Shown in pieces: positions 2,485 to 39,881 of a stretch of 64,000 bases of DNA. The position numbers were made by a program, and so were the translations under genes. Where the stretch lies: assembly GCA_963730935.1 (NCBI GenBank), contig CAVSTP010000004.1, forward strand, positions 704,001-768,000. The letters are read 5' to 3'. This DNA comes from an uncultured Nitrospiraceae bacterium (lineage in GTDB: Bacteria; Nitrospirota; Nitrospiria; Nitrospirales; Nitrospiraceae). Positions within the stretch are counted from its first letter, which is position 1, and each line of letters starts with the position of its first letter. The notes below the pieces were generated by a model. That model saw only the letters and a list, made by a program, of their open reading frames with translations. It searched no databases and had not been told where the DNA came from.

Positions 2485-4359
2485 TTAGGCCAGCTTGAAC
2501 TGCGCGACCGACGCCGACAGACCATCGGCGAGCTTGGCCATGTCTTCGACGGTCAACCGCGCGGCATCAGTAGCCTTTTGCGTCGCGACGGCACCGCCGG
2601 TGAAGTCCTTAATCGAGCGACCCACCTGATCCGTGGATGCCGTTTGCGTCGCCGCGGAGCTGGCGATGGTTTGCGCCAATTCGGCGGAGCGTTGCGCGAT
2701 GCCTGAAATTTCGTTGAACACTTCACCGGTACGCAGCGCGGAAGCCGATCCTGCTTCCACCGCCTGGGTTTCCTGTTCCATGGCGACCACCGCGTCCTGG
2801 GTTTCGCTTTGAATGACTTTCACAAGATCCGCGATTTCTCTTGTCGCTTGCGTCGAGCTTTCGGCCAGTTTTCGCACCTGGTCGGCGACGACCGCGAATC
2901 GCGCACCGGCCTCGCCGGCGCCGGCCGCCTCGATGGCGGCGTTGAGCGCGAGCAGGTTGGTTTGGTTCGCGATATCTCGAATCGTCGACACGATTTGCGA
3001 AATTTCCAACGACCGGTCGCCGAGGCCCTTGACCTGCTTCGACATGCGCTGCACCGCTGAACGAATGCTCTGCATGTCCTGCACGGTTTCCTGCACCGCG
3101 ACACGACCGCGTTCCGTCGCTTGCAACACTTGCTTGGCGGATTCTGAAGACGCACCGGCTGTTTCGGCGACCTGACGCATTTGCGCGGCCAGCTGTTCGA
3201 CGGCGGTGAGCGTCTTGACTGACTCGTCCGCTTGGTGTTTGGCGGTACCGGCCATCTGACCGGCGCTGTCGCGCAACGTACCGGCTGACTTGTTGACGCG
3301 CTCGGCGGCCTCTCGGACTTGTTTGAGCAGCTGTCCGAACCGGGCGATCATGAGGTTGAAACCGTCCGCCAAGTTGCCGAACATGTCCGCCGTCACTTCA
3401 CCGCGCTTCGTGAGGTCGCCTTTACCGACGTCCGACACGAGCACGAGGAAGTTCATCAACCGCTTTTGCATCTCGTCGCGTTCACCTTCCGACGTCACGA
3501 GGGCCGTAATGCGGTCCAACATGGTGTTGAACGAGGTCGCCATCTGGCCCAGCTCGTCCTTCGAGGTGATCTTGGCGCGCGCTTGATAGTTGCCGCTCGC
3601 CGCTTGTTGGGCGACACTGGCGACCTGTCCGATACCCAGAGACAGTTTGTGGGCCACCCAATATCCGAGGGCCAAGCCCAACAGCACGGCGGCGACACCG
3701 CCGACGACCAGAATCAGGGTTGCGTTGGACGCCATGGCCTTCGCTTCGTCTGAGAGGTCCTTGGCGACTTCCGACATGGTCTTAATTTGTTCGGCGTGGC
3801 GCTGCGTCACCTTTTCGAACGCCGGGCTCAAGCTCACCGTGATGGCGAGAGCGCCCAATTCCCGCATGGCCAAGGCCTGGCCGGTGGACAACGACCGGTT
3901 TTCGAAGCTCTCTTTGATGGTGCCGATCGCAGCGTCGCCCTGACCAAAGAATTCGTTGAGCGCTGTCTTCAACTCGGCCAAATCCTTCGCTTCATCCCGG
4001 CCTGTGCTGGACGTCCGCAGGGTCGTCTTTTCGTAGCTGTTGATCAGACGCTCGATTTCTGTGCGGTAGGGCGCGATATCCTTCAACTCGATTTCGAAGT
4101 CTGAGGCGCGCGGCGTCCTCGCGACGTCGACCAGAGATTCGTGGTAGCGGTTCACGTTGAACAGGAGCTGGTTGAACTCGGTCAACGGAACCGTGTAGTC
4201 GAGGTACACCGTTTCCGCTTGTGTGGACAAACGGCCGTTGGTCACGATGCCCACGCCGGCCATGGCGGCGATGATCACACCGACCAAGCCGAACACCGTC
4301 AGCAGTTTGGCTTGGGTCTTTAAGTTTTCAAACCATTGAAAAAAATTGGTCCTGAACAT
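2485..4359 (-). CDS. Methyl-accepting chemotaxis protein (periplasmic helical sensor, HAMP, MCP signalling domain)
   Basis: Two TM segments, HAMP ([13 protein letters not shown]) and MCP hairpin [38 protein letters not shown]. Confidence 0.95.
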
Positions 4360-4431
4360 GGGAACCTCCTCCTTCTCGCTCGCGATACGATCGAGCCTTG
4401 AATCTCACACCCTGTCTTGACGATCTTCCAA

Positions 4432-24147: not shown

Positions 24148-24246
24148 TCAGCGCGGATGAGCTGGCTGTGCGGCACTTGTCATCACTGAATCCCTTATGG
24201 TACAGTCACGTGCATTGTCAGTAATTTCTGAGTGAAGGAGTACGCC

Positions 24247-24438
24247 GTGGCATTCGTATGTGACATCTGCTCGAAGAAACATCAGTCAGGACATAACGTC
24301 AGTCACGCCAATAACAAGACAAAGCGAACCTTCAATCCCAACCTCCAGCGTGTGCGCGCCGTGGTCGATGGATCGACGAAGCGCATCCGAGTCTGCACCC
24401 GTTGCCTCCGGAGCGGTAAGGTCCGGAAGGCTGTCTAG
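24247..24438 (+). CDS. rpmB: 50S ribosomal protein L28 (Zn-ribbon form)
   Basis: CDIC...[20 protein letters not shown]...[12 protein letters not shown] start after GAAGGAG. Confidence 0.97.
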
Positions 24439-24446
24439 TCGCCTTC

Positions 24447-24761
24447 TCACGGCGCCGACCACAAAATTCGCCCCGTACGATCAGTGAGCTTGACGGCCAC
24501 CGAGCCGTCGGGGGACAAGGCCAAGGTTCGATTGCCGTCCCGGCTGGTTAAGACCAGACCGACTTCCCCGTCGGAGTCCAACCCCAAACCCGCACGGGCT
24601 TTCCCCGCTTGATCCAGCAACAGAAATTCCTCGGCGTGCACACCGTTCGCCTTCTGTGCGTGTACGACCCCGGCGACGAATAGCCGCTCGCCCAGAATTC
24701 CGCCGGTCAGGCTGCCGACGAACGTGGTTGCCAGCACAAAAACCCATGAGAGTTTCGTCAT
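24447..24761 (-). CDS. Hypothetical exported protein
   Basis: AGAAAGGA RBS, N-terminal hydrophobic segment, beta-rich EEFLLLDQAGKARAGL. Confidence 0.7.
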   Translation of the reverse strand: MTKLSWVFVLATTFVGSLTGGILGERLFVAGVVHAQKANGVHAEEFLLLDQAGKARAGLGLDSDGEVGLVLTSRDGNRTLALSPDGSVAVKLTDRTGRILWSAP

Positions 24762-24952: not shown

Positions 24953-24999
24953 TGGAGCGGGCGATGGGATTTGAACCCACGACAACTAGCTTGGGAAGC
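24953..24999 (-). repeat. Displaced 3' half of tRNA-Gly(CCC); att site of island B
   Basis: 47-nt exact copy of 32497-32543 (anticodon loop through CCA); the identity stops just past the anticodon loop. Confidence 0.93.
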
Positions 25000-25058
25000 G
25001 GGTTCGTCTTTTGTACCCAGAGATACACAATCACACGCCACGCAACCGCGAATAACAG

Positions 25059-25166
25059 TATCAACTATTTAGGGAGACAGCAAGATACAGGACGGTACAG
25101 CGAGACACGCGGGCAACCGTGACAAGAACCGGAAACGGAAGCATGAACCGTGACGGAAACCGGAAA
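25059..25166 (+). promoter_or_regulatory. att-arm architecture: IHF consensus, 10-bp periodic repeats and two arm-type sites
   Basis: TATCAActatTTA (25059-25071) matches WATCAANNNNTTR. Periodic GAGACAG/GATACAG/GGTACAG/GACAC follow. AACCGTGACnnnAACCGGAAA occurs at 25115 and 25146, with a third copy at 32428. Confidence 0.7.
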
Positions 25167-25485
25167 TCTTTTCCTGCCTCTCTACAGGAAGGCCCCCCGC
25201 CATGTTCAGGCAGGCGGGGTAACCTCCATGAGCCTCGACGGCATAGCCTCATATCCATGTGCTTCTCTACAAACTGAAATCACAGATCTTGAAGCCTCAG
25301 ACGCTTCTCCTAGGGTCATCAGCCCGCTAAACAAGAACCTTATGAGCCGCTCTTCCACTGTTAGCACAGGCACAATTTTGATAATTGAGCTGGTTTCTTG
25401 AACGGTATCCGCACTTTCAAGGCAAGAGTGCTTATTTCAAGCTGCAAACGTCACCCTTGGATCATCTGCTTCTTCTATCCCATGC

Positions 25486-26163
25486 TTACCGCAAGTTTAG
25501 CGCAGGGAGAATCGCGCGTAAGAATTCCTTCGCGATTGCCTGGTGGCCGGCGTTATTCGGGTGGAATCCGTCCACATCGAAGACAAGATCGTCCTGAACG
25601 GGAATGGAGAAGAAATTGACGAGCTTGGCGTCGACGCGCTTGGCTTCCTCCGTGATAGCCAAATTATAGGCTGCGATGCGTTCAGGCGTGACAGAAGGAT
25701 TGGGTCTCTCCCGAAAACGGGGAAGCTTGGTAAGGTCCGGAAGATTCGCCATCACTATGGTCTTGGATATATCGCCCTTGACTATGCCTAGCAGCGCCCG
25801 GAGGTCCTCTTGAAACACCTTCGGATCATCTCCATTTACCAGATCGTTAGCTCCGGCCCAGAGGGTGACGAGCTGTGCCTTCGTTCCAACCTGCGCGGCG
25901 AGGCGCACTTCCTCCTTAATCAGATCGATTCGCGCAGCAGGAACCCCAAGATTCATCAGAAAGACCCCCGGCATCCGCCGGTCCAAATCACGCTTGATGA
26001 GATAGACATATCCCTCAGTCAAAGGGATGGCGCCCACACCGACTGCATCGCTCGCGCCGAGTGCCAGGTACACAAATTTGATCGGACGATCACGTGAGCC
26101 AGCACAAAAGGTCAGGGTGAGCGCGCAAGTCAGGACCGCAAAAGTCTGTATAGCCAGTTTCAT
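25486..26163 (-). CDS. SGNH/GDSL hydrolase, exported
   Basis: YLALGASDAVG, NLGVPAA, WAGANDL, DGFHPNNAGH. ATG 26163 follows AAGGAGA. Confidence 0.88.
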   Translation of the reverse strand: MKLAIQTFAVLTCALTLTFCAGSRDRPIKFVYLALGASDAVGVGAIPLTEGYVYLIKRDLDRRMPGVFLMNLGVPAARIDLIKEEVRLAAQVGTKAQLVTLWAGANDLVNGDDPKVFQEDLRALLGIVKGDISKTIVMANLPDLTKLPRFRERPNPSVTPERIAAYNLAITEEAKRVDAKLVNFFSIPVQDDLVFDVDGFHPNNAGHQAIAKEFLRAILPALNLR

Positions 26164-26244
26164 AAAAGTTTTCTCCTTGTCGTTACTAAAATCCTGCAAT
26201 GAGTAAATTCGTCATGCGTCCTGGCCTCGAATAGAAAGAATTGT

Positions 26245-26523
26245 TCAATTTGGCAAGGGCGCAGTGGCTTGTCGAGTGGGCCTTACCCGTTGCATGAAGT
26301 CCATATAGCATCCAGAACAATAAGTATGGGTTAGAGCGCTTCCCATCAAGGTGACTCCATATCTCTGTTCATACGCTTGGCATGTGATCCACCGATCAGA
26401 TTCGGCAGTAAATGTCTTCCTTCCTCGAACCAGTCCGCATACACAACACATAGCGATGACCGCGCTTTCTCCCGGCGAAGCTTCGTACTTGATGCCTGAG
26501 CGGAACGGCAGTTTTTGAGCCAT
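26245..26523 (-). CDS. Small putative Zn-binding protein
   Basis: MCCVCGLVR...LTHTYCSGC; GAGG RBS. Confidence 0.65.
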   Translation of the reverse strand: MAQKLPFRSGIKYEASPGESAVIAMCCVCGLVRGRKTFTAESDRWITCQAYEQRYGVTLMGSALTHTYCSGCYMDFMQRVRPTRQATAPLPN

Positions 26524-26783
26524 AAGTTTACCTCAAGAGTTGGGCTGGCATGCACAGCGGTGGGAGCAAACTCCACGCCAGCCCTTTATCGCGTGTAGAC
26601 CAAGATTTCCTGCCAGACATGCCCTAAATGCTTGTACATTCGTGTTTATTCGTCTCGTCTGTGTGTATCCGTCTACTACTAGGAGGGTCCCTAGTCACAT
26701 GAATGACCTGGTCAGGCTCATAGCTGAATAGTATCCTGCCACTGACAGACGGCGACCGATGACCTGTCAGCCTTGGCTCTACA

Positions 26784-27253
26784 ATGGAAGCGCCTAGACC
26801 ACTATTGCCACCGTTCGATGCATCAAAGGCTGTTCACAAAGTCCGTACTGCGGAAGATGCGTGGAACACCCGTGACCCAGAGCGTGTCGCATCAGGGTAT
26901 ACACAAGATAGTGTGTGGCGGAATCGTTCCGAGTTTTTTGCGGGGCGCGAGGCCATCCTCCAATTTTTAACCCGGAAATGGAATAAAGAATTAGACTATG
27001 GGCTCATCAAGGAGCTCTGGACGTTTCAAGGTAATTGGGTTGCTGTACGGTTTTGCTATGAGTGGCATGATGATTCTGGGAATTGGTTTCGCTCCTATGG
27101 CAACGAGAACTGGGAGTTTGACGGCAGCGGGTATATGCACGGCAAATTGCAAGCATCAACGATGTGCGCATAGAAGAAGGTGATCGAAAGTTCCACTGGC
27201 CGCTTGGGCGCAGGCCGGATGACCATCCAGGCCTTTCAGAGTTAGGTCTGTAG
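26784..27253 (+). pseudogene. DUF1348 (SnoaL/NTF2-like) protein, frameshifted near the 3' end
   Basis: RPLLPPF...[14 protein letters not shown]...[13 protein letters not shown]. The tail [34 protein letters not shown] is in another frame. Confidence 0.85.
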
Positions 27254-27327
27254 GCTCAGTAATCTTTCAGTCTGCGAATCTGCAATTCACAGATCATGAT
27301 TCATCCCGAGAAGCTAGAATCAGAAGA

Positions 27328-27690
27328 TCAGTGAGCCAGTTCATATCGGACGGCACGGAGCAGCTCTTCGATGGCGAATGGCTTGTGCAAGGTTTGACGG
27401 GCGCCTAACAGCTTGGCCAGATCTAAGAAGCGCTGGTACTCAGGCACCCCGGAGATCGCGATCACCTTCACATCGAGGAATTCCCGGGTCAGCTCCATGA
27501 TGACATCGAGGCCATTCAGTTCAGGCATGTGGATGTCGGCAATGACCAAATCCGGCGGCCGCTGACGGAACAGACCCAGCCCTTCGCGCCCATTAGATGC
27601 CTCCAGCACCTCGTAGCCAACGGACTGAAGCGCAGAGCGGACCACCACACGCACAGACTCTTCATCGTCGAGGACTAAGACGGTCGCCAT
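27328..27690 (-). CDS. Stand-alone receiver-domain response regulator
   Basis: VLDDEE, IADIHMPELNG, IAISG, LHKPF. Confidence 0.9.
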   Translation of the reverse strand: MATVLVLDDEESVRVVVRSALQSVGYEVLEASNGREGLGLFRQRPPDLVIADIHMPELNGLDVIMELTREFLDVKVIAISGVPEYQRFLDLAKLLGARQTLHKPFAIEELLRAVRYELAH

Positions 27691-28434
27691 CAGGTCTCTC
27701 GGGATTCTAGCTCAATGTAGATCCCGCAGATAATACTACCTCAGCCAACCTATCCCCCGAAGAAATCACAAAGCAGGCCGGTTCCTAGTGGATATTGAGC
27801 GGGCTGAAGAAATGGGAGGTGGAAGCGTCCACTCAGGATGACGGAAATGAAGCCGGACGATGGTCCAGCTGTTGATCAAATAGCCACAACCCTTGGCAGG
27901 CTTGAGTCAGCCAAATCGATACTCATTTGCGCAGTGTAAATTCCGGACATCGGCGCGGTAAACGGAGAGGCGATTTCCATCGTGGCTTTCATGCACGGAA
28001 GGATCAGCATGGCCTGGCAGCCTAACCTCGCATACTTGGCTTCAAGATGACGCAGCTGAAGTCTTACTGCCAGGTCAAAGACACGATGTGCGCAAGACCT
28101 GACATCGCGCCGTATCTCTGCCGCAGTTAAAGGGAAGACCGACACCGAAGCGCCTCTGGTGTCTGAGTATGAGCGGGTTATCCCTTCTCCTAACGCAATA
28201 AGCACAATGAAGGGCACCTCGTTCCCGCTGCCAGGTAGTGGACAGATAGCAAACGGAGGTCGGTGCGGCCCCCATTCCGGTTGCGCCAGCAACGTCAGAC
28301 GCAAGCCAGGCCACCGGCCGATTTCCCATTCGTGGCCGTTATCATGGGACCACTTAAACTCGGCCAGTTCCATCAGCGTGAGAGCGAATAACATTTCTAC
28401 CGGTCGCTCGCACCGATCAATGCCAAGGCGCTGC

Positions 28435-28572
28435 TCAATACTCGCGGCCATAGTAACGGATCCAATCCGGTGTGCTAGCTGGTTGCTTTGTCGTCTTATG
28501 AAATGAAAGCCAGACCCAACACGAGAGGAGAACAAGGAGAACGAGGAGAACCATAACGAGCAGGTACAACAT
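28435..28572 (-). CDS. Putative 45-aa single-TM microprotein
   Basis: MLYLLVMVLLVLLVLLSCWVWLSFHKTTKQPASTPDWIRYYGREY*. GAGGAG lies upstream and a 3x9-bp repeat encodes VLL. Confidence 0.45.
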   Translation of the reverse strand: MLYLLVMVLLVLLVLLSCWVWLSFHKTTKQPASTPDWIRYYGREY

Positions 28573-28863
28573 TTCAAGGCATAATTTTAACTCTCCTCAC
28601 GTTGACGCCCTACGACTTTCTGAAAATGAGTAGCCTTCATTAGAAGACCTGTTAAACGGAAAGATCAAGGCAAGGAAGCCTTCGCGGTGAACAATTTCTT
28701 CCATGTTGGATATTTGCACGTACAGCTCAGAACGGTAGCAAAAATCGTCAGCCGCTCTAAAGCTCTCGTAATTGGCTTACTAGCATTGGACTTCCGATCC
28801 GATCTCGTATGGCATCGCCGTTGCAAGTGAACGGAAACTCGAAGACAACGAACGAGGTATCCC

Positions 28864-29509
28864 ATGCGTCTCCTTCGATGTGCGGCCAAGGTCTTGTCGC
28901 TGGCCTTAGTGCTCGGTCTCTGGAATTCCCCTGACACATGGGCGTTAACGGCGAGTCCGGCATCACTAACCTTTCAAGCCGTACAGGGGGGAAAACAATC
29001 CAGCCAGCCAGTCGGTCAACGTGTCCAAACCGAATAAGAAGAACACGAATTGGACGGCATCAGTTAGCGCCAGCTGGGTCTCCGTGTCTCCTGCGATAGG
29101 AAGTTTTACAAGCTCGTCACAGATTTCCGTACTAGTGAATACAGCCGGATTAGCAGCGGGTACTTATTCTGCCACCGTGACAGTAACGGCGTATAAAGGC
29201 GGGAGCGTATCTATTCCTGTGTCCTTGACGGTTGCTCCGACCACGACGACCAGTTCGTCGACATCGACCAGTAATACAGCAGCTTCGCTGACCTGGGATC
29301 CCGTTACGGATACAGGTATCGCGGGTTATAACGTATACGTGGGAACGGCTTCCGGTGTCTTCGGAACGCCCATCAATGTAGGGAATGTCACCTCGCGCAT
29401 CATCAATAATCTCGCCGTGGGATCTACCTACTACTTCGTTGTGACCGCCTATGACACTAGTGGTGTGGAGAGCAATCCCTCCAACGAGGTTAGCAAGAGC
29501 GTTTATTGA
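28864..29509 (+). pseudogene. Secreted BACON-like plus fibronectin type III protein with a +1 frameshift in a G/A run near 28990
   Basis: GAGGT RBS and signal peptide MRLLRCAAKVLSLALVLGLW..., then ASPASLTFQAVQG | NPASQSVNVS...SLTWDP...GYNVYVG...YYFVVTAYD...ESNPSNEVS. Confidence 0.8.
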
Positions 29510-29681
29510 CAAACCATGCCCTTGAACGGTTTGATCGTGACTCAAACCTGACCGGAACCGTGACTTGCCGCGGGGATGTATCGGCAAGACGGGTGCCTAA
29601 TGAGGACTCCAACGCCTAGCCTGACATACACGGCTGTGCCATGAATGGATAATCATGTTCCGCTTTTTGATATCAGAGTTT

Positions 29682-30131
29682 CTACGGTTGAACAACCCCG
29701 TTAATCGTCAGGGTGGAGGCGTCGAATACACTGCCAGCGTTGACACGTAAGCCAGGACTCCTGATGTCGATGGTGTCGAAACCGAGAATCTGAGTGTTCG
29801 TCAGCGCCGTGTTCTTACCGTCTAAGGTGACCGCCCCGAGGAAAAAAAGCGGGTTGGTGGTGATTTGAGTGTCTGTCAACTCAATCTGGTTACCTTTTAT
29901 TTGAATGAGGCCCCGAAATCGAACTGCCGTAATCATACTCTGGTCAATCGTGAAGCGGGCTCCGCCATCGATCAGAATGGCGCCGCCGTTCCGACCGGCT
30001 CCAGCTATCTCGAGCAGGGTACCATCGCTTAGATGCACGGCCTTTGTCGCCTGGAGGCTGATTAGACCGGGATCGCCCTCACCGTGAACATGGAGATAGG
30101 TGGCGCGTAGCGAGATGGTGGGGGCAGCCAT
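29682..30131 (-). pseudogene. C-terminal remnant of a filamentous-haemagglutinin-like beta-helical protein
   Basis: Repetitive GGAILID/IELTDTQITT/TALTNTQIL pattern; no signal peptide or N-terminal domain. Confidence 0.5.
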
Positions 30132-30506
30132 AACAATAGAGCGAGAGCCGCCATTACCTTCGGAACCGGAAAAACTTTTACGGTGATGCGCGTGAATGGG
30201 ATAGTGGAGGATGTGGCGCTACTATTTAAGGCTGACGTACTCCGACCAGACCTGGCAAACCACTATCCCCCTTATTGGAAGGAAAGGGGAAAGCTTCTGG
30301 AAGACGTGAAACGGCATGACACGGCATTCCGTAAAACGGCAACCCGAGTGTCTAAGACGCTTACTTTGCTCTCGTATGCGGAGACGGGCAATCACCCACC
30401 ACTTCTACGTAAAAACGATCCCCTACGAAAGCGTGACTTGTTTATCTCTTACGTAGTCGTCTAGCCTGTCGCTCCACCATGTGAATATAGTGGAAGAGGG
30501 CGAATT

Positions 30507-30662
30507 ATGCACATTCCCGTCCGCGACGAAATCTTGGCCTGCACGCGTGCCTGTGAGGAAATACTGGCCAGTGGTATGACGTTGTCCGAGGAAGAGCGCA
30601 GCCTTCTCGAATACTACATGTCCCGTCTGTCACAGATCCCAAGAGCGATTCCGTCACCCTAA
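30507..30662 (+). CDS. 51-aa small protein of the CE..YY family, paralog of 31327-31536
   Basis: Below the track cut-off. MHIPVRDEILACTRACEEILASGMTLSEEERSLLEYYMSRLSQIPRAIPSP*; GGAAGAGGG upstream. Confidence 0.7.
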   Translation: MHIPVRDEILACTRACEEILASGMTLSEEERSLLEYYMSRLSQIPRAIPSP

Positions 30663-30809
30663 ACGGCACCGTGAGCAAGCGTTAGAAGCTCTGACATTCC
30701 TTCGCCGCCTGCTCACAGATTCGCTGAATATCTCGCAACCAGCCGGATCCGGCGGATTTCATCAAGGGGAAGATCGATATCCGACCAAGTAAGGTAGCCA
30801 GGTGACCGT

Positions 30810-31190
30810 ATGATTGATGTTCTCATCGTTGATGATCATCCCGTCATGCGCGAACTACTGGCGCAGGTGGTGCAGCGATACCCCGACCTATCTCTCATTG
30901 CAGAGGCCGGATATGGTGAGGAAGCCGTCAGCCAGGCAACCCGATTACAGCCTGCCGTTGCTTTGGTTGACGTCCATCTGCCCACGATGAGTGGGATTGA
31001 AACGACGAGACTGATCAAGCTGCGAAGCCCCTTGACCGTCATCATTGGTCTAACCGCTAGCGAACCAAACGATAACGACATGGCCATGCTGTCTGCTGGA
31101 GCAAGCGCAGTGATCAGCAAGGCGGATCTGTTTCATCGCCTCTACCCCTGCATCCTAGACGCGGTGAAAAGTCTAAAAGCTGCTATCTGA
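30810..31190 (+). CDS. Stand-alone NarL-type receiver domain
   Basis: IVDDHP, VDVHLPTMSG, GLTA, ISKA; no HTH. Confidence 0.9.
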   Translation: MIDVLIVDDHPVMRELLAQVVQRYPDLSLIAEAGYGEEAVSQATRLQPAVALVDVHLPTMSGIETTRLIKLRSPLTVIIGLTASEPNDNDMAMLSAGASAVISKADLFHRLYPCILDAVKSLKAAI

Positions 31191-31214
31191 TCTTTCAGCA
31201 GGTCGAATGACCGC

Positions 31215-31243
31215 TTGACCCAGCCTTCTAGAGCGCCTACGGT
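31215..31243 (+). promoter_or_regulatory. Sigma70-type promoter of the leader/small-protein unit
   Basis: TTGACC-N17-TACGGT; a related, degraded copy starts at 33292. Confidence 0.55.
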
Positions 31244-31276
31244 AGCTTCACTTCACTCCACTCCACCCTGTCCTGC

Positions 31277-31322
31277 GGCCTCCTGGAAGGCCCGACCGCC
31301 AGACACCTAATGAAAGGCGGTC
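31277..31322 (+). repeat. Repeated two-hairpin leader element (other copies at 25176-25219 and 33351-33399)
   Basis: GGCCT-cctgga-AGGCC then GACCGCC-N15-GGCGGTC, immediately before ATG 31327. Confidence 0.7.
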
Positions 31323-31326
31323 CTCG

Positions 31327-31536
31327 ATGTCTAGCTCACCACTGCCCATCCGCCAAGACCTTCGTGATTTTTTCCGTGACTGCGAGCGAGTGTTAGCCAC
31401 CGTTCATGCTCCAGATCATGCGCCCTTCTCGCACGATGAACTGCAGATGATCTGTTACTATGCGAACGAAGTCGCCACGATGGCCGATTCGCAAAGGCTT
31501 GCTGAGCACAGGAATGGAAAACCGGCACTGACCTAG
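31327..31536 (+). CDS. 69-aa small protein of the CE..YY family
   Basis: PIRQDLRDFFRDCERVLA...FSHDELQMICYY aligns with the 30507 ORF. Confidence 0.72.
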   Translation: MSSSPLPIRQDLRDFFRDCERVLATVHAPDHAPFSHDELQMICYYANEVATMADSQRLAEHRNGKPALT

Positions 31537-31573
31537 GATCGGATCCTCACGCTATTGCGAAGGATGTGTGATA

Positions 31574-32002
31574 ATGCTGCACGTTAAGCCAGGTCCCATC
31601 CGAGTTATCCTTGTCGACAATCACCCGTCATTTCGGCAAGGTTTACGATCCTTATTTGGCTCATATACGGACATTGAAGTCGTCGGCGAGGCCGAGAACG
31701 GTGAGGAAGTGGTCCATTCAATGCCCTATCTTTGTCCTTCGGCCATTGTCATGGACATAAACATGCCAAAGGTGAACGGCATTGAAGCTACCCGTACAAT
31801 CAAGGCTCATTATCCTCATGTGGTGATCGTGGGGTTATCTGTTCATGCGGACAACTTTTATCAAACGGCCATGCTTGCAGCCGGTGCTAAAAGCGTCGTC
31901 TCGAAAGGGATGGCGGGTCTCTTTCTGTATCGGCAGATCAAAGCCGGGGTAGAGAATTTACCGCCACTGCCCAACGCTGCCCAAAATAGTCATTTTTATT
32001 GA
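31574..32002 (+). CDS. Stand-alone NarL-type receiver domain
   Basis: ILVDNHP, VVGEAENGEE, VMDINMPKVNGIEAT, GLSV, VSKG; no HTH. Confidence 0.9.
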   Translation: MLHVKPGPIRVILVDNHPSFRQGLRSLFGSYTDIEVVGEAENGEEVVHSMPYLCPSAIVMDINMPKVNGIEATRTIKAHYPHVVIVGLSVHADNFYQTAMLAAGAKSVVSKGMAGLFLYRQIKAGVENLPPLPNAAQNSHFY

Positions 32003-32125
32003 TTCCTGACCTAGAAGGCCACGCCGATCATGCCCTGCGAGCTATCTCACATGGGCTCGCCGGCACCTCATCGTGCTTCCGCTCCACTAGTGCGTGAGCA
32101 ATTTTGACCAGCCAGGTAGTTCCCT

Positions 32126-32518
32126 ATGCCTAGACCGCCCCAAAAGCGCGGACTCCAGCGAAACTTCTATGCTCGGATCTTCCGCCCTGCAGTCAACGCG
32201 GCCAAACTCGAGGACGGCGTGGGCTGGCACGCCCTCCGCCATACCTTCGCCTCACGGCTGGCGATGAGCGGCCAAACCGAGGGGACCATTGCCACCCTCA
32301 TGCGGCATAGCACGACGGCGCTGGTGCGACGGTATGCCCACCTGTCCCCATCCTACCTGCATGCCGCCGTCGAAACGGTAGCCGCCTACGGCAAGCCAAA
32401 CCCGAAAAGTGCGCCAATTTCAGTGGGAACCGTGACAGAAACCGGAAAGGGTCTCGGACACGGCGAAGGGAATGGAACGGAAGTGATTGAAAAAGTTGGA
32501 GCGGGCGATGGGATTTGA
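32126..32518 (+). pseudogene. Tyrosine integrase C-terminal remnant of island B, ending antisense inside the tRNA 3' half
   Basis: WHALRHTFASRL...LMRHST...RRYAHL (HxxR, H, Y catalytic residues). N-terminal domains are missing; the stop at 32516-32518 is within the tRNA. Confidence 0.88.
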
Positions 32519-32571
32519 ACCCACGACAACTAGCTTGGGAAGCTAGGACTCTACCACTGAGCTACGCCCGC
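32497..32571 (-). tRNA. tRNA-Gly(CCC)
   Basis: GCGGGCG-TA-GCTC-AGTGGTA-GAGT-C-CTAGC-TTCCCAA-GCTAG-TTGTC-GTGGG-TTCAAAT-CCCAT-CGCCCGC-T-CCA; 75-nt cloverleaf. Confidence 0.97.
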
Positions 32572-32950
32572 TCGCTTCGGTTTGTCGAGCACTTAGGGAT
32601 GTACCACCAACTGCCACAGGCTCAGGTGTTATTACGGTGTTAGTTCTGAACGAGTGCAGCTGCCCCGCCGATTTGTGGAGGTCTTGCGGCTCAATTGTAG
32701 TGCATCCGATCCGACTTGTGACCAACGATTTTCATCGCCGTCGCCGTATCAACACCTGCCCGTCTCATATTCGTACTGGCGGTATGGCGAAAATCATGGA
32801 TACGCAGGTTGGTGATTCCTGCTCGGCGACAGGCCGCCTTAAACGCCGTCCCAATTCGCTGTATAGGCCTATCGTTATACAGGAACACCCGTTTGGTGTC
32901 TAGGAGACGCTCCTTCCATAGCTCTGCAAAAACTTGGTGTACGGCTGGTT
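32543..32950 (-). pseudogene. Tyrosine integrase C-terminal remnant of island A, reading into the tRNA 5' half
   Basis: VFAELWKE...VFLYND...LRIHDFRHTASTNMRRAG...IVGHKSDRMH, a frameshift near the catalytic Tyr, then TIEPQDL...NTVITP...EASGRSSVVES* with the stop at 32543-32545 inside the tRNA. Confidence 0.85.
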
Positions 32951-32964
32951 TTGCCCCATCGAGT

Positions 32965-33207
32965 TTAGGCGGCTTTATGGGCGATTTCAGCCCTTCTGGT
33001 GGATAGCTTTTTCGCCCTTGCTTTTCCGCCCTTGAGTCCTCCTAGCCGTCCAAGGGTTACGGCAGTAGGGTTCCTCTCGGGCTGGCCAGACTCCCCATCC
33101 TTCTTAACGGAACGAGCTAGACGGGGCTTATTTTCATCCTTCGTCACTTCTCGCAGAATCTCGAAATCCGTTACGTTCACATCGGTGGATTTCTTCTTTT
33201 TAGCCAT
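32965..33207 (-). pseudogene. Small basic 'histone H1-like' IS passenger ORF with premature stop
   Basis: RNPTAVTLGRLGGLKGGKARAKKLS...EIAHKAA*TRWGK, adjacent to an IS-type terminal repeat. Confidence 0.6.
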
Positions 33208-33257
33208 GCGGTCACTATACATGACCGCTTAAGCACGTGACTGTGCTATATCGTACC

Positions 33258-33277
33258 TTTCAAACTGACCCACTACC
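33258..33277 (-). mobile_element. Solo terminal inverted repeat resembling IS1-family ends
   Basis: Minus strand GGTAGTGGGTCAGTTTGAAA; no partner end or transposase seen in the window. Confidence 0.55.
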
Positions 33278-33419
33278 GAGAATGGGCTTGCTTGACACCA
33301 GCCTTCTAAAGAGCCTGGCTATCGGACAAGCTACATACACAACTGCCGACGGCCTCTTTGGAAGGCCCGACCGCCGACATCTTTGTGAGAAAGGCGGTCG
33401 CCCACTCTGCCATCTCAAA

Positions 33420-33809
33420 TTAGCGCTCCTTGTTTAGCCATTCGGTAGCATCTTGTAGAGTCTCAAAGACCCTGAGCATCGCCCCTCGATTCACGGCCAC
33501 GGTTTCCGCGAATCTTGCCGGGTCACGAAGAGGCTCATGGATAACATACGCAAACCGCAGATGGATGTTATGCTCAACGACAATCCTGTGAGTTTCTGTC
33601 GCGGCGAATTCGCCGTAGTAGAAGCGCTCCATGTGCTTGGGGTTTCCGTGCACGTTCCGGCCATCAAGTAATATTTTCTCAGCCTTATGTCGGACAACAG
33701 GGTCAAGCATTTCAAGGAAGGACTTTTTGGCCTCCTCCAGCGTGAACTCTCCGCTTGCAACCACGTTGAGAAAGCCCGACTGAAAATGCATGTTCTGCCG
33801 TATGCTCAT
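33420..33809 (-). CDS. Hypothetical protein, SpoIIAA/STAS-like
   Basis: 129 aa; VVASGEFTLEE...KILLDGR...FAETVAVNRG..RVFETLQDATEWL pattern. Confidence 0.65.
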   Translation of the reverse strand: MSIRQNMHFQSGFLNVVASGEFTLEEAKKSFLEMLDPVVRHKAEKILLDGRNVHGNPKHMERFYYGEFAATETHRIVVEHNIHLRFAYVIHEPLRDPARFAETVAVNRGAMLRVFETLQDATEWLNKER

Positions 33810-34213
33810 TCTATATTAGTGACGAGGAGTGAAGAATTTCGAGCGGAGGCTGTTCGACAGCGCATGTTGCATGGACAACTCTGGTAATTGTCGCCACGAT
33901 GAAAAGGTACATCAACAGCGTTTGTCGAACAAGCGCCAGTCCAGCGCTTTCATGGTCAGCTATGATCCACCCGATTGCTTTTTGGGATCATCCCTGTATG
34001 CGCCTTTACCTGACTGGCAGTCGGCCATGCTACCTCCTGGCGCAAGGGTGGCTTTAGGCTCACCGCACCTCACACCGCGATAGACCCCGCCCAGGTGAAA
34101 AGTAGAAAAGCCCATCGCAGAATGTCTACACTGTAATTCGCTCTCGTTTTGCATTCTACGTCTTGAGGTTCCCTAGCGGCGGCAGTAGGATGCGGCCCAA
34201 GAGGAGTTCAGTT

Positions 34214-34759
34214 ATGACTACACATCCTTCCACCCCTCAGTCCAACATCGAGCTTATGCGGAGAGCGTTCACGGCATTGGGACGTAAGGATGTGGATGCC
34301 TGTGTGAAACTTATGCCGTCGGATTTCACGATCAACATCGCTGGAATGCCTTACCAAAAGAGAGGAACCGACGCCTGGCGAAAGCACGCTGAAATCCTCT
34401 TCTCAGCATTTCCAGACATTCAAACACACATTGAGGATATCTTCGCCAGCGACGACAAAGTCGCTGTTCGCATGCGCTTGACGGGCACGCATACCGGGGA
34501 ATTCCTTGGAATTCAACCCACGGGAAAGAAAGTAGAGTACGAGAGCAACGAACTTTACCGCATTGCCGATGGAAAGATTGCCGAGGAGTGGATTTGCTCC
34601 GACATGCTTACGCTGATGGCCCAAATAGGCGGGACTGGGCTTTCGATGGGCAAGCTCGCGTCCATGTGGCTTGCTGGTTATCGGGTATGGTTCGCGCTTT
34701 TTCTTGGCATCGCCATCGGGATGCTCTCGATGGTACTGCTGCGCTTCGTATTATCATGA
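34214..34759 (+). CDS. SnoaL-like ester cyclase with a C-terminal TM segment
   Basis: AFPDI...DDKVAVRMRLTGTHTGEFLGIQPTGKKV...DGKIAEEW; GAGGAG RBS. Confidence 0.88.
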   Translation: MTTHPSTPQSNIELMRRAFTALGRKDVDACVKLMPSDFTINIAGMPYQKRGTDAWRKHAEILFSAFPDIQTHIEDIFASDDKVAVRMRLTGTHTGEFLGIQPTGKKVEYESNELYRIADGKIAEEWICSDMLTLMAQIGGTGLSMGKLASMWLAGYRVWFALFLGIAIGMLSMVLLRFVLS

Positions 34760-35089
34760 GCCTCTTGGCCCTCCCTCCCCTATTTCACCGTGGAACAAGG
34801 CCGGCGTGGAGACGTAGAATGCGGCGATGGGCGCTGAAGCTGCCCTGACCGACCTCTGAACCTCCCCTGCCGCGCGAAGCGACAGAAATCCCCATCAAAT
34901 AATTTTTCCGCAGGACTTCACTTCACATCGCTAGGGTTCATACTGCAAATAATCCCTCTTCTGGGGAATGTAATACTGCCCGGCAAAGTCCTAAGCTGTC
35001 GTCATGGGTGGCACTCGAAGGGCGCACTCGGTTGAGAAAGGCGTGTTAGGACCCCCTCTCGCGCGGATTTCACAGGTGGAAACGCTACA

Positions 35090-36520
35090 ATGACTCTAAG
35101 CATCTCTCGACAGAAAAATGACTTACTCCTTCTTGCGTCCCTCATTCTGCTCGAATTGTCGACCGCTGTCGTGCCGATGGCGATTTACATGAAGGGGGAT
35201 AGGCCCTTTGCGGAGTTTCTCTCCAGCAGGCCAGGCATCCTGTTTCTTTTGGCCATCGCTACCATTGTCGTAACTGGGGCAGTCCTTGTTCATCAATTTC
35301 TGGCACACAAACGGTCGCCATCGGGCCATTTTCCTATGATCGTGACAGTGAACCTCGTCACCGTGATACTTATTGTGGTTACCGGTGAGGTCGCTCTTAG
35401 AGCAGTCTCTCGTAGTTCAGTGGAGGGCGAGACAGTTGGCGGCGTAGTCTTGAAGCCGAAAAACTGGGACACGTTCGTCCAACACTACCGCCAGCTGAAC
35501 AATCGAGCCGGCGGGGATTTTTCCTATCTGGTCTATGACGATCTCATGGGCTGGACGGTAGGACCAAATAGACGGAGCGCCAATGGGCTTTATCGCTCAA
35601 GCGTGGAGGGAATACGCGCGTCTGAGGAAGGGGTTTCGTTCGCACGGCCCGAAGGAGGAACAAGGATAGCTCTGATAGGCGATTCACACACCTTCGGCGA
35701 AGATGTGAAGTATGAGGAGACGTGGGGGTATTTTTTAGAAAAGGAGTTAGGTCCCGAGTTTCAGGTCTTGAACTTCGGGGTCTCGGGGTATGGTTTGGAC
35801 CAAATGTTCCTTCGGTATGAAAAGGATATCCGCCGATGGAAGCCCAGAATCGTGATCTTTGGCTTCACCTCTCATGATACTGAGCGTACGATGTTCGTGT
35901 ATCCCTTTATCTCCTTTCCTGAGTGGGACATGCCGTTTTCAAAATCTCGTTTCATCTTGCGAGAGGGAGAACTCGCGAACATCAATGCACCAGCCCCTGC
36001 TCCAGAAGTCATCTTTTCCCGAGCATCGATTGTCAACCTTTCCGCTCTTGAGTATCACAGAGGCTACACGCAGAGCGATTGGGAGAGACGCTTTTATCAT
36101 CTCTCCTATCTCGCCCGGCTGTTCGTGTCCTGGGTGCCTCGCTGGACAATCGAACACTCCGATGTGTCTGAAAAAGCGCTTGTGACCGTCAATGCATCCA
36201 TTTTGAAGGCATTTACACGGTCAACAGTGGAAGCGGGCGCGATTCCTCTCATCATCTATTTCCCCAATAAGGAGGAACTTGAGAAAGGGAACTCGCCTGT
36301 GAGTAACGGCAAAAGAGTATTGCAAGAGGCGGGCATTGCCTACACTGATCTCACCTCTTGTCTCTTGCCGCTAAACGCCGCTGATCTCTACGTCCCGGCA
36401 CATCGTCACTACTCGTCACAAGGCAACGCAGTGGTTGCGAACTGTCTCCATAAGGTGGTGAATGAGGCGCTCGCAAGATCGCACAAACCAAAGCCAGCAG
36501 CCGTTCACACGCACCGGTGA
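35090..36520 (+). CDS. Membrane-anchored SGNH/GDSL hydrolase or acyltransferase
   Basis: Three N-terminal TM segments, IALIGDSHTFG, LNFGVSGYGLDQ, HYSSQGN. Confidence 0.85.
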   Translation: MTLSISRQKNDLLLLASLILLELSTAVVPMAIYMKGDRPFAEFLSSRPGILFLLAIATIVVTGAVLVHQFLAHKRSPSGHFPMIVTVNLVTVILIVVTGEVALRAVSRSSVEGETVGGVVLKPKNWDTFVQHYRQLNNRAGGDFSYLVYDDLMGWTVGPNRRSANGLYRSSVEGIRASEEGVSFARPEGGTRIALIGDSHTFGEDVKYEETWGYFLEKELGPEFQVLNFGVSGYGLDQMFLRYEKDIRRWKPRIVIFGFTSHDTERTMFVYPFISFPEWDMPFSKSRFILREGELANINAPAPAPEVIFSRASIVNLSALEYHRGYTQSDWERRFYHLSYLARLFVSWVPRWTIEHSDVSEKALVTVNASILKAFTRSTVEAGAIPLIIYFPNKEELEKGNSPVSNGKRVLQEAGIAYTDLTSCLLPLNAADLYVPAHRHYSSQGNAVVANCLHKVVNEALARSHKPKPAAVHTHR

Positions 36521-36690
36521 AATTATATACGTCCTTGGAAAGCTGCATATCCCTTCTTAGAGAGATGCAGAAGACTGTCAGGTGGTAGGCCTCGGTGGCT
36601 CCTGCTTTGATGACCGACGACGAGCGCAGCCATTGCTGGCATGTGCGCAAGAGTTTTACAGGCCGTAGGAAACGGAGAAGCTCGCGGTGC

Positions 36691-36828
36691 TCAACCAACA
36701 GTATGAACGCTGGCTTGGACGCTGGCGTGGATTTCGGTGCCCATGAAAAGAACCAACCAATACAGCAAGACGACCATGAGCAAGGCGCCAATCACAGTCA
36801 TGATCCAAAGCTGTGTTTGGTACTTCAT
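36691..36828 (-). CDS. Putative 45-aa single-TM microprotein
   Basis: MKYQTQLWIMTVIGALLMVVLLYWLVLFMGTEIHASVQASVHTVG*; GAAGGGG RBS. Confidence 0.5.
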   Translation of the reverse strand: MKYQTQLWIMTVIGALLMVVLLYWLVLFMGTEIHASVQASVHTVG

Positions 36829-36883
36829 ATCTGCCCCTTCGAGCTAAGGTGGCTGCTCTTTCCAGAAGATCGAGGCCACCCGG

Positions 36884-37402
36884 CTATGCTGTGCCCTGTG
36901 CGTTAACTTCTATGACTGTGAGTGATTTGTTTTTCTGATTCCGCTGAATTTTCCAGCGACTGTGGACAGTGACCAGCGAGCCGTCACGACGCCTATGGAT
37001 TAGCTGCCCTTCCCACGACAAGTTTTTTCGCGTTTCTCTTTCAATTCTAGTCAGTGACGTAGGAAATTTTGTCTTGAAAAGGTTGTGCGTACGCGCGCCA
37101 AGCACTTCTTGCGGCGTCCATCCGTAGATGAGCTCAGCTTCTCTGCTCCAATACCGAATTGTCCCGTCCTCATCACGCACGATCAGCGCTTCCAGAGTCC
37201 TATCATCAGACCGTTCGTTGAATGCGTGATCCTGGGTAAAGTCAAACGAAGGCAGGTGCTGCAGAAACTCCCGGATCAACCGACGCACAATTTGTGATGC
37301 GCTGACCCGACTGCCGGTACGCTGCGTCTCTATCTTGCCCAGGCGCTCCAGCGCCTTTAGATCCAGATCGTCGAGGTGCAGCGATGTTCGCTTCATCGTC
37401 AT
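36884..37402 (-). CDS. Ribbon-helix-helix plus PAS domain protein
   Basis: N-terminal MKRTSLHLD...SASQIVRRLIREFL (CopG-like). C-terminal ALIVRDEDGTIRYWSREAELIYGWTPQEVLG...WEGQLIHRRRDGS (PAS/PAC). Confidence 0.82.
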   Translation of the reverse strand: MTMKRTSLHLDDLDLKALERLGKIETQRTGSRVSASQIVRRLIREFLQHLPSFDFTQDHAFNERSDDRTLEALIVRDEDGTIRYWSREAELIYGWTPQEVLGARTHNLFKTKFPTSLTRIERETRKNLSWEGQLIHRRRDGSLVTVHSRWKIQRNQKNKSLTVIEVNAQGTA

Positions 37403-37409
37403 CTCGACT

Positions 37410-37439
37410 ATTTTATTACAAAGGTAATAACAAAGTAAA
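37410..37439 (-). promoter_or_regulatory. Promoter with embedded palindrome upstream of RHH-PAS
   Basis: TTTACT-N18-TAAAAT ending 7 nt before the ATG; perfect TTATTAC-N4-GTAATAA palindrome at 37413-37430. Confidence 0.6.
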
Positions 37440-37941
37440 CTACACTTGAAGGCAGCTGCAGCTTGTGGTCACGGACATGAATGCTCTTCGGTGCGAGCAC
37501 ATCTATGTTGCTGGTGGGAGTATGCAATCAGCTGGTTTGGATGGTACCCCTGGCGGTGCTGCCATTGTCGCACACGTAAGTGGTTACGAGTGTTTTAGCG
37601 TTATGCAGGCACCACTACAACACATGAACACAGCGGCCCCAGTGGACGTTAAGACCGATGACATTCGACAGGTAATTCTCGACCGTCAAAGAGGCAGGCA
37701 CTTACTATGTGGCTAAAGCGTGACAGAACTATCGTGCCCGATGGGTTTGCATCAGGCGCAAAGGGACCATCACGGGCGCGGCATAATCATGCTCAGAATG
37801 GGGTCACCGCCACCAAAGTCGAACGGGCTGAATCGAGGCCAGTTCAGGCCCTAGAGGCCCGTTCAGGAGATTTGTTTGGGGGTCGGATCAGAGGGACCGA
37901 GATCAGGTAGCTAGAACGGGGACCAAAACCGGGATCAACAC

Positions 37942-38256
37942 TTATTTTCTTGTTTTCATTAGGGGGTACCCTTTCTTGGACATACATTTGTGAAATTTAA
38001 CGCGTGACTCGGGTGTTGCACCAAACAGGATGACGGACGGGCCTTCACTGTATGCGTCGAAGTCAGGATCGTCTCGATGGACCGATTGGGTGCAACTATC
38101 AACCGCGCGTTCAAGGTCGCTACGTAAGGTCCAAAATTCTATCACTGCGGTTCTGTAGTCATGCAGTTCGAATGCTTTATAGGCTTCAGAGAAACCCGTC
38201 AACCCGGGTACTGGGAAGAGGAGGATAATCGTGATGAGGAGAATGCCTTTTCTCAT
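37942..38256 (-). CDS. Hypothetical exported protein
   Basis: Signal peptide MRKGILLITIILLFPVPGLTG; two Cys; FHKCMSKKGYPL. Confidence 0.6.
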   Translation of the reverse strand: MRKGILLITIILLFPVPGLTGFSEAYKAFELHDYRTAVIEFWTLRSDLERAVDSCTQSVHRDDPDFDAYSEGPSVILFGATPESRVKFHKCMSKKGYPLMKTRK

Positions 38257-38545
38257 TGGGCTTCTATCATTTGTTTGTAACTGCGAGCGGGGTCCTTCCC
38301 TCCCGTCGTAATAGCCATAGCACGCAGCAGTCTACCCTGCTACTTTTCAGTTAAAAACTGGCACCAGAAACGGTTGGCTCCGGTACCGACGAACCCGAGG
38401 TGCTATTACGGTGTTAGGAATTGAGACGGAAGCATCAGGAAAGACCACAACTGGGAAGGATAGAAGGGAAACGGTCGACGACTGAATCTCCAGGAATTAA
38501 ATGGGATTGCGCATGAATGCTTAGCTTAGGCAATCCCTCTCTCTC

Positions 38546-38588
38546 AGCTTGCGAAGCTAGGACTCTACCACTGAGCTACGCCCGCTCG
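38546..38588 (-). repeat. Displaced 5' half of tRNA-Gly; att site of island A
   Basis: 42/43 identical to 32532-32574. The single mismatch turns the anticodon CCC into CGC. No T-arm or acceptor 3' strand follows. Confidence 0.92.
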
Positions 38589-38603
38589 TTCAAACCAGCC
38601 GGA

Positions 38604-38632
38604 ATCCTACGATGGCACTAACGCCAAGTCAA
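38604..38632 (-). promoter_or_regulatory. Original tRNA-Gly sigma70 promoter
   Basis: TTGACT-N17-TAGGAT between the tyrS stop and the 5' tRNA fragment. Confidence 0.7.
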
Positions 38633-38645
38633 GGAAGCCCTTCGC

Positions 38646-39881
38646 TCATCTGGACTCGGCCTTCCATTCAACAAGGGCAAACTTCTTTCTTCCAATCTTC
38701 AATCGGCGCTGTTGATTGAGTCTAAAGCGAATGAGCTTGTTCGGGTCCGGTTCTTTCTCGCCGTCAATCTCGATCCCTCCTTGAATGATCAACCGCCTGG
38801 CCTCGCTCTTACTGGCGACCAGATTCGTCTTCATCACCAAATCGGGAAGCTTGATATCGCCTTCGTCACCCCCGTCAAGCCCGGTCATATCCGTCGTCTG
38901 AAGCTGCACGACCGTATCCGGGACATCGGGGAACTCCCGGTCTTGGAACTTTTGCTGAAACCCTGCAAGGGCATTTCGGGCCGCCTCTTGCCCGTGATAC
39001 CGCTCGACAAGTAGACCCGCCAGTTGCTGTTTGGCTTCCATGGGATGCGCCGTCTTGACCCGAGCCAGATCCTCGGTCGTCAGGAGCTCATAGTAACGGA
39101 GCATCAAATCGTCGCTGATGGACATAATCTTGCCGAACATGTCTCCCGGCACATCTTCGAGTGCCACATAGTTGCCGATGCTCTTGCTCATTTTCTTCAC
39201 GCCATCCGTGCCCTCGAGCAATGGCATCGTGACGACGACTTGTGGTTCCTGTCCGTAATCTCTCTGCAGTTCTCGCCCCACCAGGAGGTTGAATTTTTGG
39301 TCGGTGCCACCCAATTCGACATCGGACTTCAACGCCACGGAATCATATCCCTGCACGAGCGGATACAGGAATTCATGAATGCTGATCGGCTTTTGCTCTT
39401 GGAAGCGCTTGTGAAAATCATCCCGCTCCATCATGCGCGCGACCCGATAGTGCGCGGCCAGCTCGATGAGGTCCCCCGCTGTCATGGGTCCCATCCATCG
39501 ACTGTTGAATTCAATCAGGGTCTTTTCCTGATCGAGAATCTTGAAGATCTGCCGCTGATAGGTCTTGGCATTGTCTTGCACTTGCGCCTTGGTGAGGACC
39601 TTTCTGGTTTCGGACACTCCGGTGGGGTCGCCGATCAAGCCCGTAAAATCGCCGATCAGGAAAATGACCTGGTGGCCAAGATCCTGGAAATGCTTGAGCT
39701 TATGGATGAGCACCGTATGGCCGAGATGCAGATCAGGCGCCGTCGGATCGAAGCCGGCCTTAATGCGTAGCGGCCGGCGTTCCTTGAGCGAGCGCACCAA
39801 CTTGGATTCCAGCTCCGCCTCTTGAATGACCTCGACCGCACCTCGAAGGATCAGATCGAGCTGACGCGACAGTTCGCTCAT
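38646..39881 (-). CDS. tyrS: Tyrosine--tRNA ligase
   Basis: [26 protein letters not shown] and C-terminal S4 domain. Confidence 0.98.

Follow-up and report, generated by a model that had tools for sequence, protein, structure and literature searches.

How does a tRNA gene remain complete once both halves of the host's own copy have been displaced from it? This question is raised by the gene for tRNA-Gly(CCC) of an uncultured Nitrospiraceae bacterium (source genome G000), located in the window analysed here, i.e., 64,000 nucleotides (nt) of contig C4 (G000:C4:704001-768000), to which all coordinates refer unless a contig or another locus is named. The intact gene is bordered by two islands, A and B, at whose outer ends a displaced 5' half and a displaced 3' half of the same tRNA gene are found. 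With high confidence, two unrelated tyrosine-integrase elements are concluded to have entered this one gene from opposite sides, a conclusion carried by the observed anatomy of the locus, the empty sites of relatives, the origins of four flanks, the orientations within two integrase families and an equal arm-to-anticodon spacing in both orientations. Both elements would have recombined at one symmetric site, the anticodon stem-loop of tRNA-Gly(CCC), whereby B would have supplied a tRNA 3' half and, as is usual, displaced that of the host downstream. A would have entered in mirror orientation, bringing a 5' half beside the end of its integrase gene and leaving the host promoter together with the host 5' half 6 kb upstream. 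The order of the two insertions cannot be told, because either of them leaves a complete target for the other. Both integrases have decayed since, and transcription of the tRNA is suggested to start from a sigma70-like site inside the integrase gene of A.

Anatomy of the locus and its empty sites

The minus-strand order of promoter, 5' half, intact tRNA and 3' half, as described by the initial annotation, was confirmed (Table 1). The 5' half given there (38588-38546) is present, whereby position 38588 takes in three upstream bases and the half proper extends from 38585 to 38546; a mismatch that had gone unmentioned changes the middle anticodon base at 38552, turning CCC into CGC, which is probably decay. 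CGC is an Ala anticodon and 38552 the centre of the presumed overlap, and exact excision of island A could in principle give a Gly tRNA with an Ala anticodon. The 5' identity block stops 3 nt past the 7-nt loop and the 3' block begins 2 nt before it, the chance expectation of a 40-mer in G000 being ~1e-15, and the intact copy is the sole Gly(CCC) gene among 50 tRNA calls in this genome. As had also been annotated, each interval holds a tyrosine-integrase remnant aimed at the tRNA, both matching PF00589, and its own end repeats, which we take to be arm-type repeats accompanied by IHF-like sites on the model of lambda-type att sites and the consensus. GC content is lower in the islands (A, 0.522; B, 0.532) than in the flanks (0.559 and 0.594) or the genome as a whole (0.575).

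For comparison, 40 stretches from relatives were used, whose loci carry L-numbers. In at least 13 of them tyrS, a promoter of the TTGACT/TAGGAT type, one intact tRNA and the orf104/rpmB side follow each other without an island, and none of these 13 has a spare 5' half, which is the empty site that had been predicted, i.e., one tRNA between the tyrS and rpmB sides. In an alignment with L031, the closest relative, identity is 96.8% across tyrS and the 5' half together and 92.7% on the rpmB side; the only insert of L031 is a 165-bp module at the tRNA 3' end. Because the halves themselves are nearly identical, their origin was read from the flanks, using global alignments of 150 nt with a background of about 40-50%. 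The host-left flank (150 nt upstream of the displaced 5' half) is 95% identical to the L031 empty site, and the flank following the displaced 3' half resembles host DNA (L031 and L060, 80%). The flank before the intact tRNA resembles A-type ends (L056, 84%; L281, 71%) and that after it the B-type end of L036 (72%). All four origins are as expected (4/4), and the matches of the two inner flanks place the intact gene, by sequence likeness, between two island arms.

Weighing against this reading, the layout was taken from assembled sequence and expression of the tRNA was likewise deduced from sequence alone; parts of the stretch occur in 20 of 24 listed sequencing runs (best 0.56 of words; two RNA runs, small shares), which was counted as no evidence. 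That the layout is the product of a misassembly around the tRNA repeat has nevertheless a negligible probability: the repeats measure only 40-48 bp, each of the four junction flanks corresponds, in independent genomes, to the side predicted for it, the arm repeats pair across each island and another genome (L277) has the same layout.

Table 1. Features of the tRNA-Gly(CCC) locus in window coordinates, listed from the host promoter side to the rpmB side
Feature	Position	Strand	Remarks
tyrS, host flank at promoter side	38646..39881	-	Pfam tRNA-synt_1b, E 5.8e-78; adjoins the tRNA in relatives
Host tRNA promoter-like site TTGACT-17-TAGGAT	38604..38632	-	now separated from the intact tRNA
Displaced host 5' half of tRNA-Gly(CCC), positions 1-40	38546..38585	-	outer junction of island A
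Inverted repeat, outer end of A	38503..38537	-	decayed here; conserved hairpin in the Gly/Pro subclade
Putative far arm-type repeat of A	38399..38416	-	motif 169-174 nt from tRNA position 1 in homologous junctions
Island A, about 6.0 kb	32572..38545		missing at empty sites
Integrase A remnant	32543..32948	-	PF00589, E 2.3e-12; residues 275-403 of a 412-aa homolog; stop and frameshift; frame ends within the tRNA
Candidate replacement promoter TAGACA-17-TATAAC in integrase A	32874..32902	-	302 nt upstream of the tRNA; score 9.9 vs 11.1 for the host site
Near arm-type repeat of A	32625..32642	-	104 bp from the middle anticodon base
IHF-site-like motif of A	32583..32595	-	fixed spacing across family A
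Intact tRNA-Gly(CCC)	32497..32571	-	5' half attributed to A, 3' half to B; presumed crossover zone around loop 32541-32535
Near end of B	32428..32490	+	arm-type repeat 32428-32447, IHF-site-like motif 32481-32490
Integrase B remnant	32126..32518	+	PF00589, E 2.3e-9; C-terminal 130 aa, converges on the tRNA 3' end
Island B, 7.5 kb	25000..32496		conventional 3'-restoring
Far arm-type repeats of B, two copies	25115..25165	+	25115-25134, 25146-25165
Displaced host 3' half, positions 29-75	24953..24999	-	outer junction of island B; 100% identical
Host flank beyond the 3' half	24232..24761		104-aa open reading frame (orf104) 24447-24761, minus; rpmB 24232-24438, plus

Several side observations concern the same site in relatives. 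The module of L031 (18301-18465) is an integrase-less, GC-rich multi-hairpin module of 124-253 nt, which resides at the 3' end of tRNA-Gly(CCC) also in L033, L046, L047, L050, L051, L053, L061 and 11 of 60 loci of the census described below (22 distinct copies); it duplicates tRNA positions 51-75 and begins with an inverted copy of the T-arm. A blastn search did not find it in G000, and an Rfam search of three relative loci yielded the tRNA and cobalamin riboswitches only, with no match for the module. In L034, L035, L036, L037, L039, L040 and L062 the whole tRNA-Gly(CCC) with its promoter is inverted relative to orf104/rpmB, and L046 has two complete tRNA-Gly(CCC) genes (2143-2217 and 4322-4396), 2.2 kb apart, downstream of tyrS.

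Orientation of integrase families A and B

That island B is a conventional element and island A a 5'-restoring one, as the initial annotation had put it, was borne out by the homologs of their integrases, the full-length A and B proteins sharing 28% identity over 215 amino acids (aa). Family B comprises 30 loci including the window's own, 25 of which have a nearby tRNA call (9 being Gly(CCC)), and in 25/25 the integrase converges on the tRNA 3' end; the other five have no tRNA call. Homologs of integrase B with open frames of about 400 aa adjoin tRNA-Gly(CCC) in L232 and L233. The named homologs of integrase A come from Nitrospira and Nitrospirota. Using an alignment of 31 of 120 listed homologs as query, 160 loci of family A were collected (the best 80 of 163 plus the best 80 of 276), among which 128 are co-directional and enter the tRNA 5' end (Gly(CCC) 44, Pro(TGG) 46, Pro(GGG) 3, Arg(TCT) 29, Arg(CCT) 6), upstream of which displaced 5' halves occur, 13 converge on a 3' end (Thr 9, Arg(CCT) 3, Lys 1) and 19 are without a whole tRNA. 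Less than 250 nt of sequence is left in 13 of these 19, and where at least 100 nt follow downstream (nine loci), a tRNA half stands right after the integrase in seven and a short piece in one, the last ending at the contig end. The 5'-restoring type is the norm for the family A clade.

The displaced 5' half itself was seen within the fetched DNA in 14 of the 128 co-directional loci. Several points reduce the force of these counts: within the fetched 10 kb a 5' half occurs in just 13 of the 50 co-directional loci with at least 5 kb upstream, L130, one of ten misses traced genome-wide, showed none, and the loci are related and the sets overlap, so that the counts overstate independence. The other nine of the ten do have a 5' half, 17-147 kb upstream, which extends to the loop or slightly beyond it.

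Mirror-image use of a single core is best supported by the distance from the arm repeat to the middle anticodon base, which amounts to 103-105 bp in 111/111 co-directional and 13/13 convergent loci in which the motif was found (it was not found in 17). This equality in both directions indicates mirror use of one core and agrees with the shared crossover in opposite orientation that had been proposed. The stretch of identity shared by A-type and B-type junctions can be narrowed down to positions 30-37, within which the loop (31-37) lies, and the crossover presumably occurred in or next to the anticodon loop. Since both orientations occur within one clade, with a common spacing of 104 bp, and Arg(CCT) is a target from either side, a single tRNA gene can be entered independently from two sides.

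Three further ideas about clade A were considered and dropped. Two orientation flips, as needed by a quick tree, were rejected, since the approximately unbiased (AU) test does not reject a single convergent clade (p 0.73) and the tree constrained to such a clade is 17.85 log-likelihood units better; at least one flip is retained, two being unsupported. The integrase frame stops inside the tRNA in 74/128 co-directional vs 0/13 convergent members, and a designed feature was rejected here, as 54 stop earlier and B-type frames also enter the tRNA antisense; that tRNA 5' processing would, solely in the integrated state, free the integrase message of its stop codon is considered improbable. The outer hairpin of A (-16 kcal/mol here vs -23 to -33 in homologs; z = 0.0 over a wider stretch) was rejected as an adaptation to 5' entry, since the convergent member L125 has it and the Arg subclade is without it. 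As a separate observation, L051, L159, L161, L277 and L337 hold A-type tandem arrays on the 5' side, where the displaced 5' half follows island-type sequence and not the host promoter.

The frequency of double entry was obtained from a census of 60 stretches of 20 kb (10 kb on each side), chosen, with preference for long contigs, out of the 150 rows listed of 201 genomes. A host-type promoter directly precedes the intact tRNA in 48 of the 60 genomes and is absent in 12, nine of which have an A-type integrase or fragment and three a short integrase-derived motif. B-type marks were found in 7/60, and both A and B in 2/60 vs about 1.4 expected under independence. Double entry is recurrent, at about the rate of independent occupancy; five of the 128 co-directional loci also have an anticodon-type 3' fragment. 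The same double layout is found in L277 with open integrase frames of 417 aa and 495 aa, both integrases apparently being intact, and the 3' half displaced there is not identical to the restored copy, in agreement with direct exchange. Finders that seek 3' fragments only would miss A-type elements, whose traces precede the tRNA in 12 of the 60 sampled genomes.

Split host halves around an internal complete tRNA would formally also be the end state of a single composite element that carried a complete tRNA in its middle, disrupted the host gene and makes up for the loss, in the manner of tRNA-dependent lysogeny, and both the similar GC content of A and B and the repetition of the layout in L277 would suit such an element. 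It is considered very improbable, however, as the two halves differ in integrase family and each is bounded on either side by arm repeats of its own, as single islands are commoner than double ones (A 12, B 7, both 2 of 60) and as the outer junctions have about 12 nt around the loop in common yet differ in arm types. Entry of two elements from opposite sides is preferred.

Other tRNA genes of G000 were found with comparable fragments. Pro(TGG) (G000:C4:321442-331764) and Arg(TCT) (424631-433687) have both 5' and 3' fragments, Arg having two 5' halves; no A- or B-like integrase was seen on the 3' side of either gene, the two-sided reading there being one of fragments alone. Ser(CGA) (93608-97534) has a 5' fragment together with an open integrase of another clade.

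Both islands of the window are fossils with broken integrases, and the double arrangement is probably fixed. They do not class as active elements, since C-terminal remnants only are left and tblastn with these remnants found no intact close homolog elsewhere in G000, nor as prophages or integrative and conjugative elements, since no virion or conjugation families appeared in a Pfam scan (16 distinct island open reading frames (ORFs) of 121 listed for the wider region). The cargo of A includes SnoaL-like, GDSL-like, PAS and SpoIIAA-like proteins, and that of B three receiver-domain proteins, fn3/BACON, DUF1348 and a GDSL lipase; NCBIfam gave no family for six small island ORFs. The 476-aa GDSL-like gene of A (35055-36474) has a 93.7% identical copy at G000:C4:1133865-1135282, and 30-50 nt of A (about 34058-34107) match about 15 places in G000:C4:801409-837526 as a clustered repeat. 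An 85-aa lysine-rich ORF (32965-33222) just upstream of the integrase A remnant, which matched no Pfam or NCBIfam family, has a 92.5% DNA copy at G000:C2:635056-635398.

Upkeep of the restored tRNA and a candidate promoter inside integrase A

Restored 5' halves show 0 changes in 444 nt as compared to 7 in the displaced halves (12 pairs), and the variable stem pair 28:40 is intact in 44/44 restored Gly tRNAs. By this measure the restored tRNA genes look maintained and the chimeric tRNA is presumably still used. With regard to the earlier proposal that the functional tRNA is an A/B chimera, the flank origins back the chimera, and its functionality is suggested by sequence upkeep.

Promoter scores were computed with an approximate weight matrix for E. 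coli sigma70. No promoter-like site was found within 75 nt of the restored tRNA (score 0.4 vs 11.1 for the host site), and 0/37 A-type Gly ends reach a score of 8 within that distance; a promoter just upstream of the restored tRNA was rejected, as it did not rise above shuffles for Gly, Pro or Arg(TCT). A fixed-position TTG-17-nAnnnT occurs in 26/41 Pro(TGG) and 3/6 Arg(CCT) ends as well as in 0/38 Gly and 1/25 Arg(TCT) ends; the pattern shows no relation to tRNA essentiality and is regarded as no more than a hint.

Farther upstream, inside the integrase A gene, a candidate replacement promoter was identified (Table 1), which the stock promoter scanner leaves unlisted because it needs a T at position 6 of the -10 element. 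Some 313 nt before the tRNA, the integrase codons L-D-T-x-x-V-F-L-Y-N/K contain its family pattern, T[AG]GACA-17-TATAA[ACG], and among 82 long integrases the candidate is the top site in the gene in 15/16 Gly(CCC), 23/23 Pro(TGG) and 3/3 Pro(GGG) vs 0/10 convergent members. For 19 intact tRNAs without host promoter upstream DNA was available, a set that excludes L060 (contig end) as well as four rows whose host promoters are variant; 14 of them match the pattern and two of a divergent subclade have a variant. In four of these 14 and ahead of three displaced 5' halves, deletions have spared little but the motif, which stands 11-73 nt from the tRNA start at seven different spacings; likewise, the G000 remnant ahead of Pro(TGG) has the motif at its start. 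An in-gene promoter would explain why that piece of the integrase outlasts the rest of the gene.

With slightly better than even confidence, it is suggested that the chimeric tRNA is transcribed from a sigma70-like promoter inside the coding sequence of integrase A. More tentatively, and held somewhat short of an even chance, this Nitrospirota clade may have met the promoter problem of 5' insertion by a sigma70-type promoter in its own catalytic domain, whereby host tRNAs including the single-copy Pro(TGG) would be transcribed through the arm sites and the piece could not be lost. Against a maintained tRNA with an in-gene promoter has to be held that the intact tRNAs were called by ARAGORN, which favours undecayed genes, that the site is weak in the Arg subclade (top-ranked in 7/30 co-directional members), that two convergent members score 7.5 and that the motif is absent altogether in 3/19 promoter-less loci. 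Likewise, the amino acids largely produce the score (median synonymous-shuffle p 0.39-0.49 per sequence), 25 of 300 random 700-nt windows (8%) hold an equally strong site, and two further sites (9.6, 9.4) lie upstream of the window's tRNA.

These weaknesses bear on an alternative which assumes the same two insertions with the rebuilt tRNA being silent or fed solely by read-through from island genes upstream of it, Gly(CCC) being dispensable and the in-gene motif being a by-product of the protein sequence. Gly(TCC), which is present in G000, can read GGG by established wobble decoding, and the lack of a promoter-like site within 75 nt, the synonymous null, which is not significant per sequence, and the co-directional 85-aa ORF upstream all speak for this alternative. 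It is considered rather unlikely, as the family A clade also enters the single-copy Pro(TGG) and Arg(TCT) genes, the G000 remnant before Pro(TGG) starts at the motif, independent deletions halt just short of it and the restored tRNAs remain unmutated. The preferred in-gene promoter, if true, would account both for continued tRNA expression after entry of 5'-restoring elements and for the persistence of integrase fragments.

Comparison with known systems

Among the article listings and abstract openings searched and the papers cited below, none was found on two-sided occupancy, on the family A clade or on a tRNA promoter inside an integrase gene, and islands of this kind may already be catalogued in the Islander/TIGER tables. 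The candidate promoter within a tyrosine-integrase gene has a counterpart in Pc, which faces away from intI1. According to the passages compared, to which the following comparisons likewise refer, Pc is embedded in the intI1 coding sequence and drives neighbouring DNA, namely cassettes (PMC8120332), whereas the candidate described here is located on the sense strand and would drive a host tRNA. Integrases associated with dusA resemble island A in that their islands substitute for the 5' end of the target and bring along putative -35/-10 sites (PMC4482086); the target is, however, a protein gene, and the promoter is not placed inside the integrase gene. In terms of the arrangements defined in PMC2951348, A corresponds to SIT (same orientation, integrase before tRNA) and B to OC; SIT plus OD make up under 8% of 1,273 integrase-tRNA pairs and OC 438/1,273, and the topic there is integrase autoregulation and not transcription of a tRNA from within the integrase gene. 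In tRNA-dependent lysogeny, too, a tRNA gene is split at a short core and tRNA supply then relies on element DNA (PMC10865867). Those phages, however, carry a separate complete tRNA, and the present locus does not belong with them, as its tRNA gene is reassembled where two arm systems meet and A-type ends carry the 5' half only.

Recombination on the 5' side was described as considerably less frequent in PMC6563490, which cites Zhao and Williams 2002. Judged by its title and this citing passage, the latter work shares with island A the reversed use of a tRNA target; as compared to its title, a whole clade is reversed here, with normal-orientation relatives at identical arm spacing. The closest likeness is to the tRNA-gene (tDNA) islands of Islander, which consist of an intact tRNA and a cognate fragment in an allowed configuration with a tyrosine integrase between them, over 2-200 kb (PMC4383910). 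Within 3,919 such islands, 159 have a displaced 5' tDNA fragment, 2,083 use the anticodon-centred site A and 125 are tandems of two or more. Island A falls into the 5' class, its 5' fragment (positions 1-40) being located 6,014 nt upstream on the same strand and within the 2-200 kb, its integrase, the gene of which is broken here, matching PF00589 and being neither Xer nor integron (the full-length homolog P0007 lies far below all Xer and integron cut-offs), and a precise empty site being present in relatives. Island B, with its 3' fragment downstream, an integrase between and an empty site in relatives, falls into the 3' class. The Islander text compared makes no mention of two-sided occupancy or of promoter replacement by the 5' class; the difference is that here both classes meet on one gene, neither half of which would be the host's. 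As 5'-side islands are already known, the locus combines two known island classes in a way that recurs elsewhere; its evidence for mirror use is unusually clear, and it is a natural demonstration that a symmetric anticodon arm can be used in either direction.

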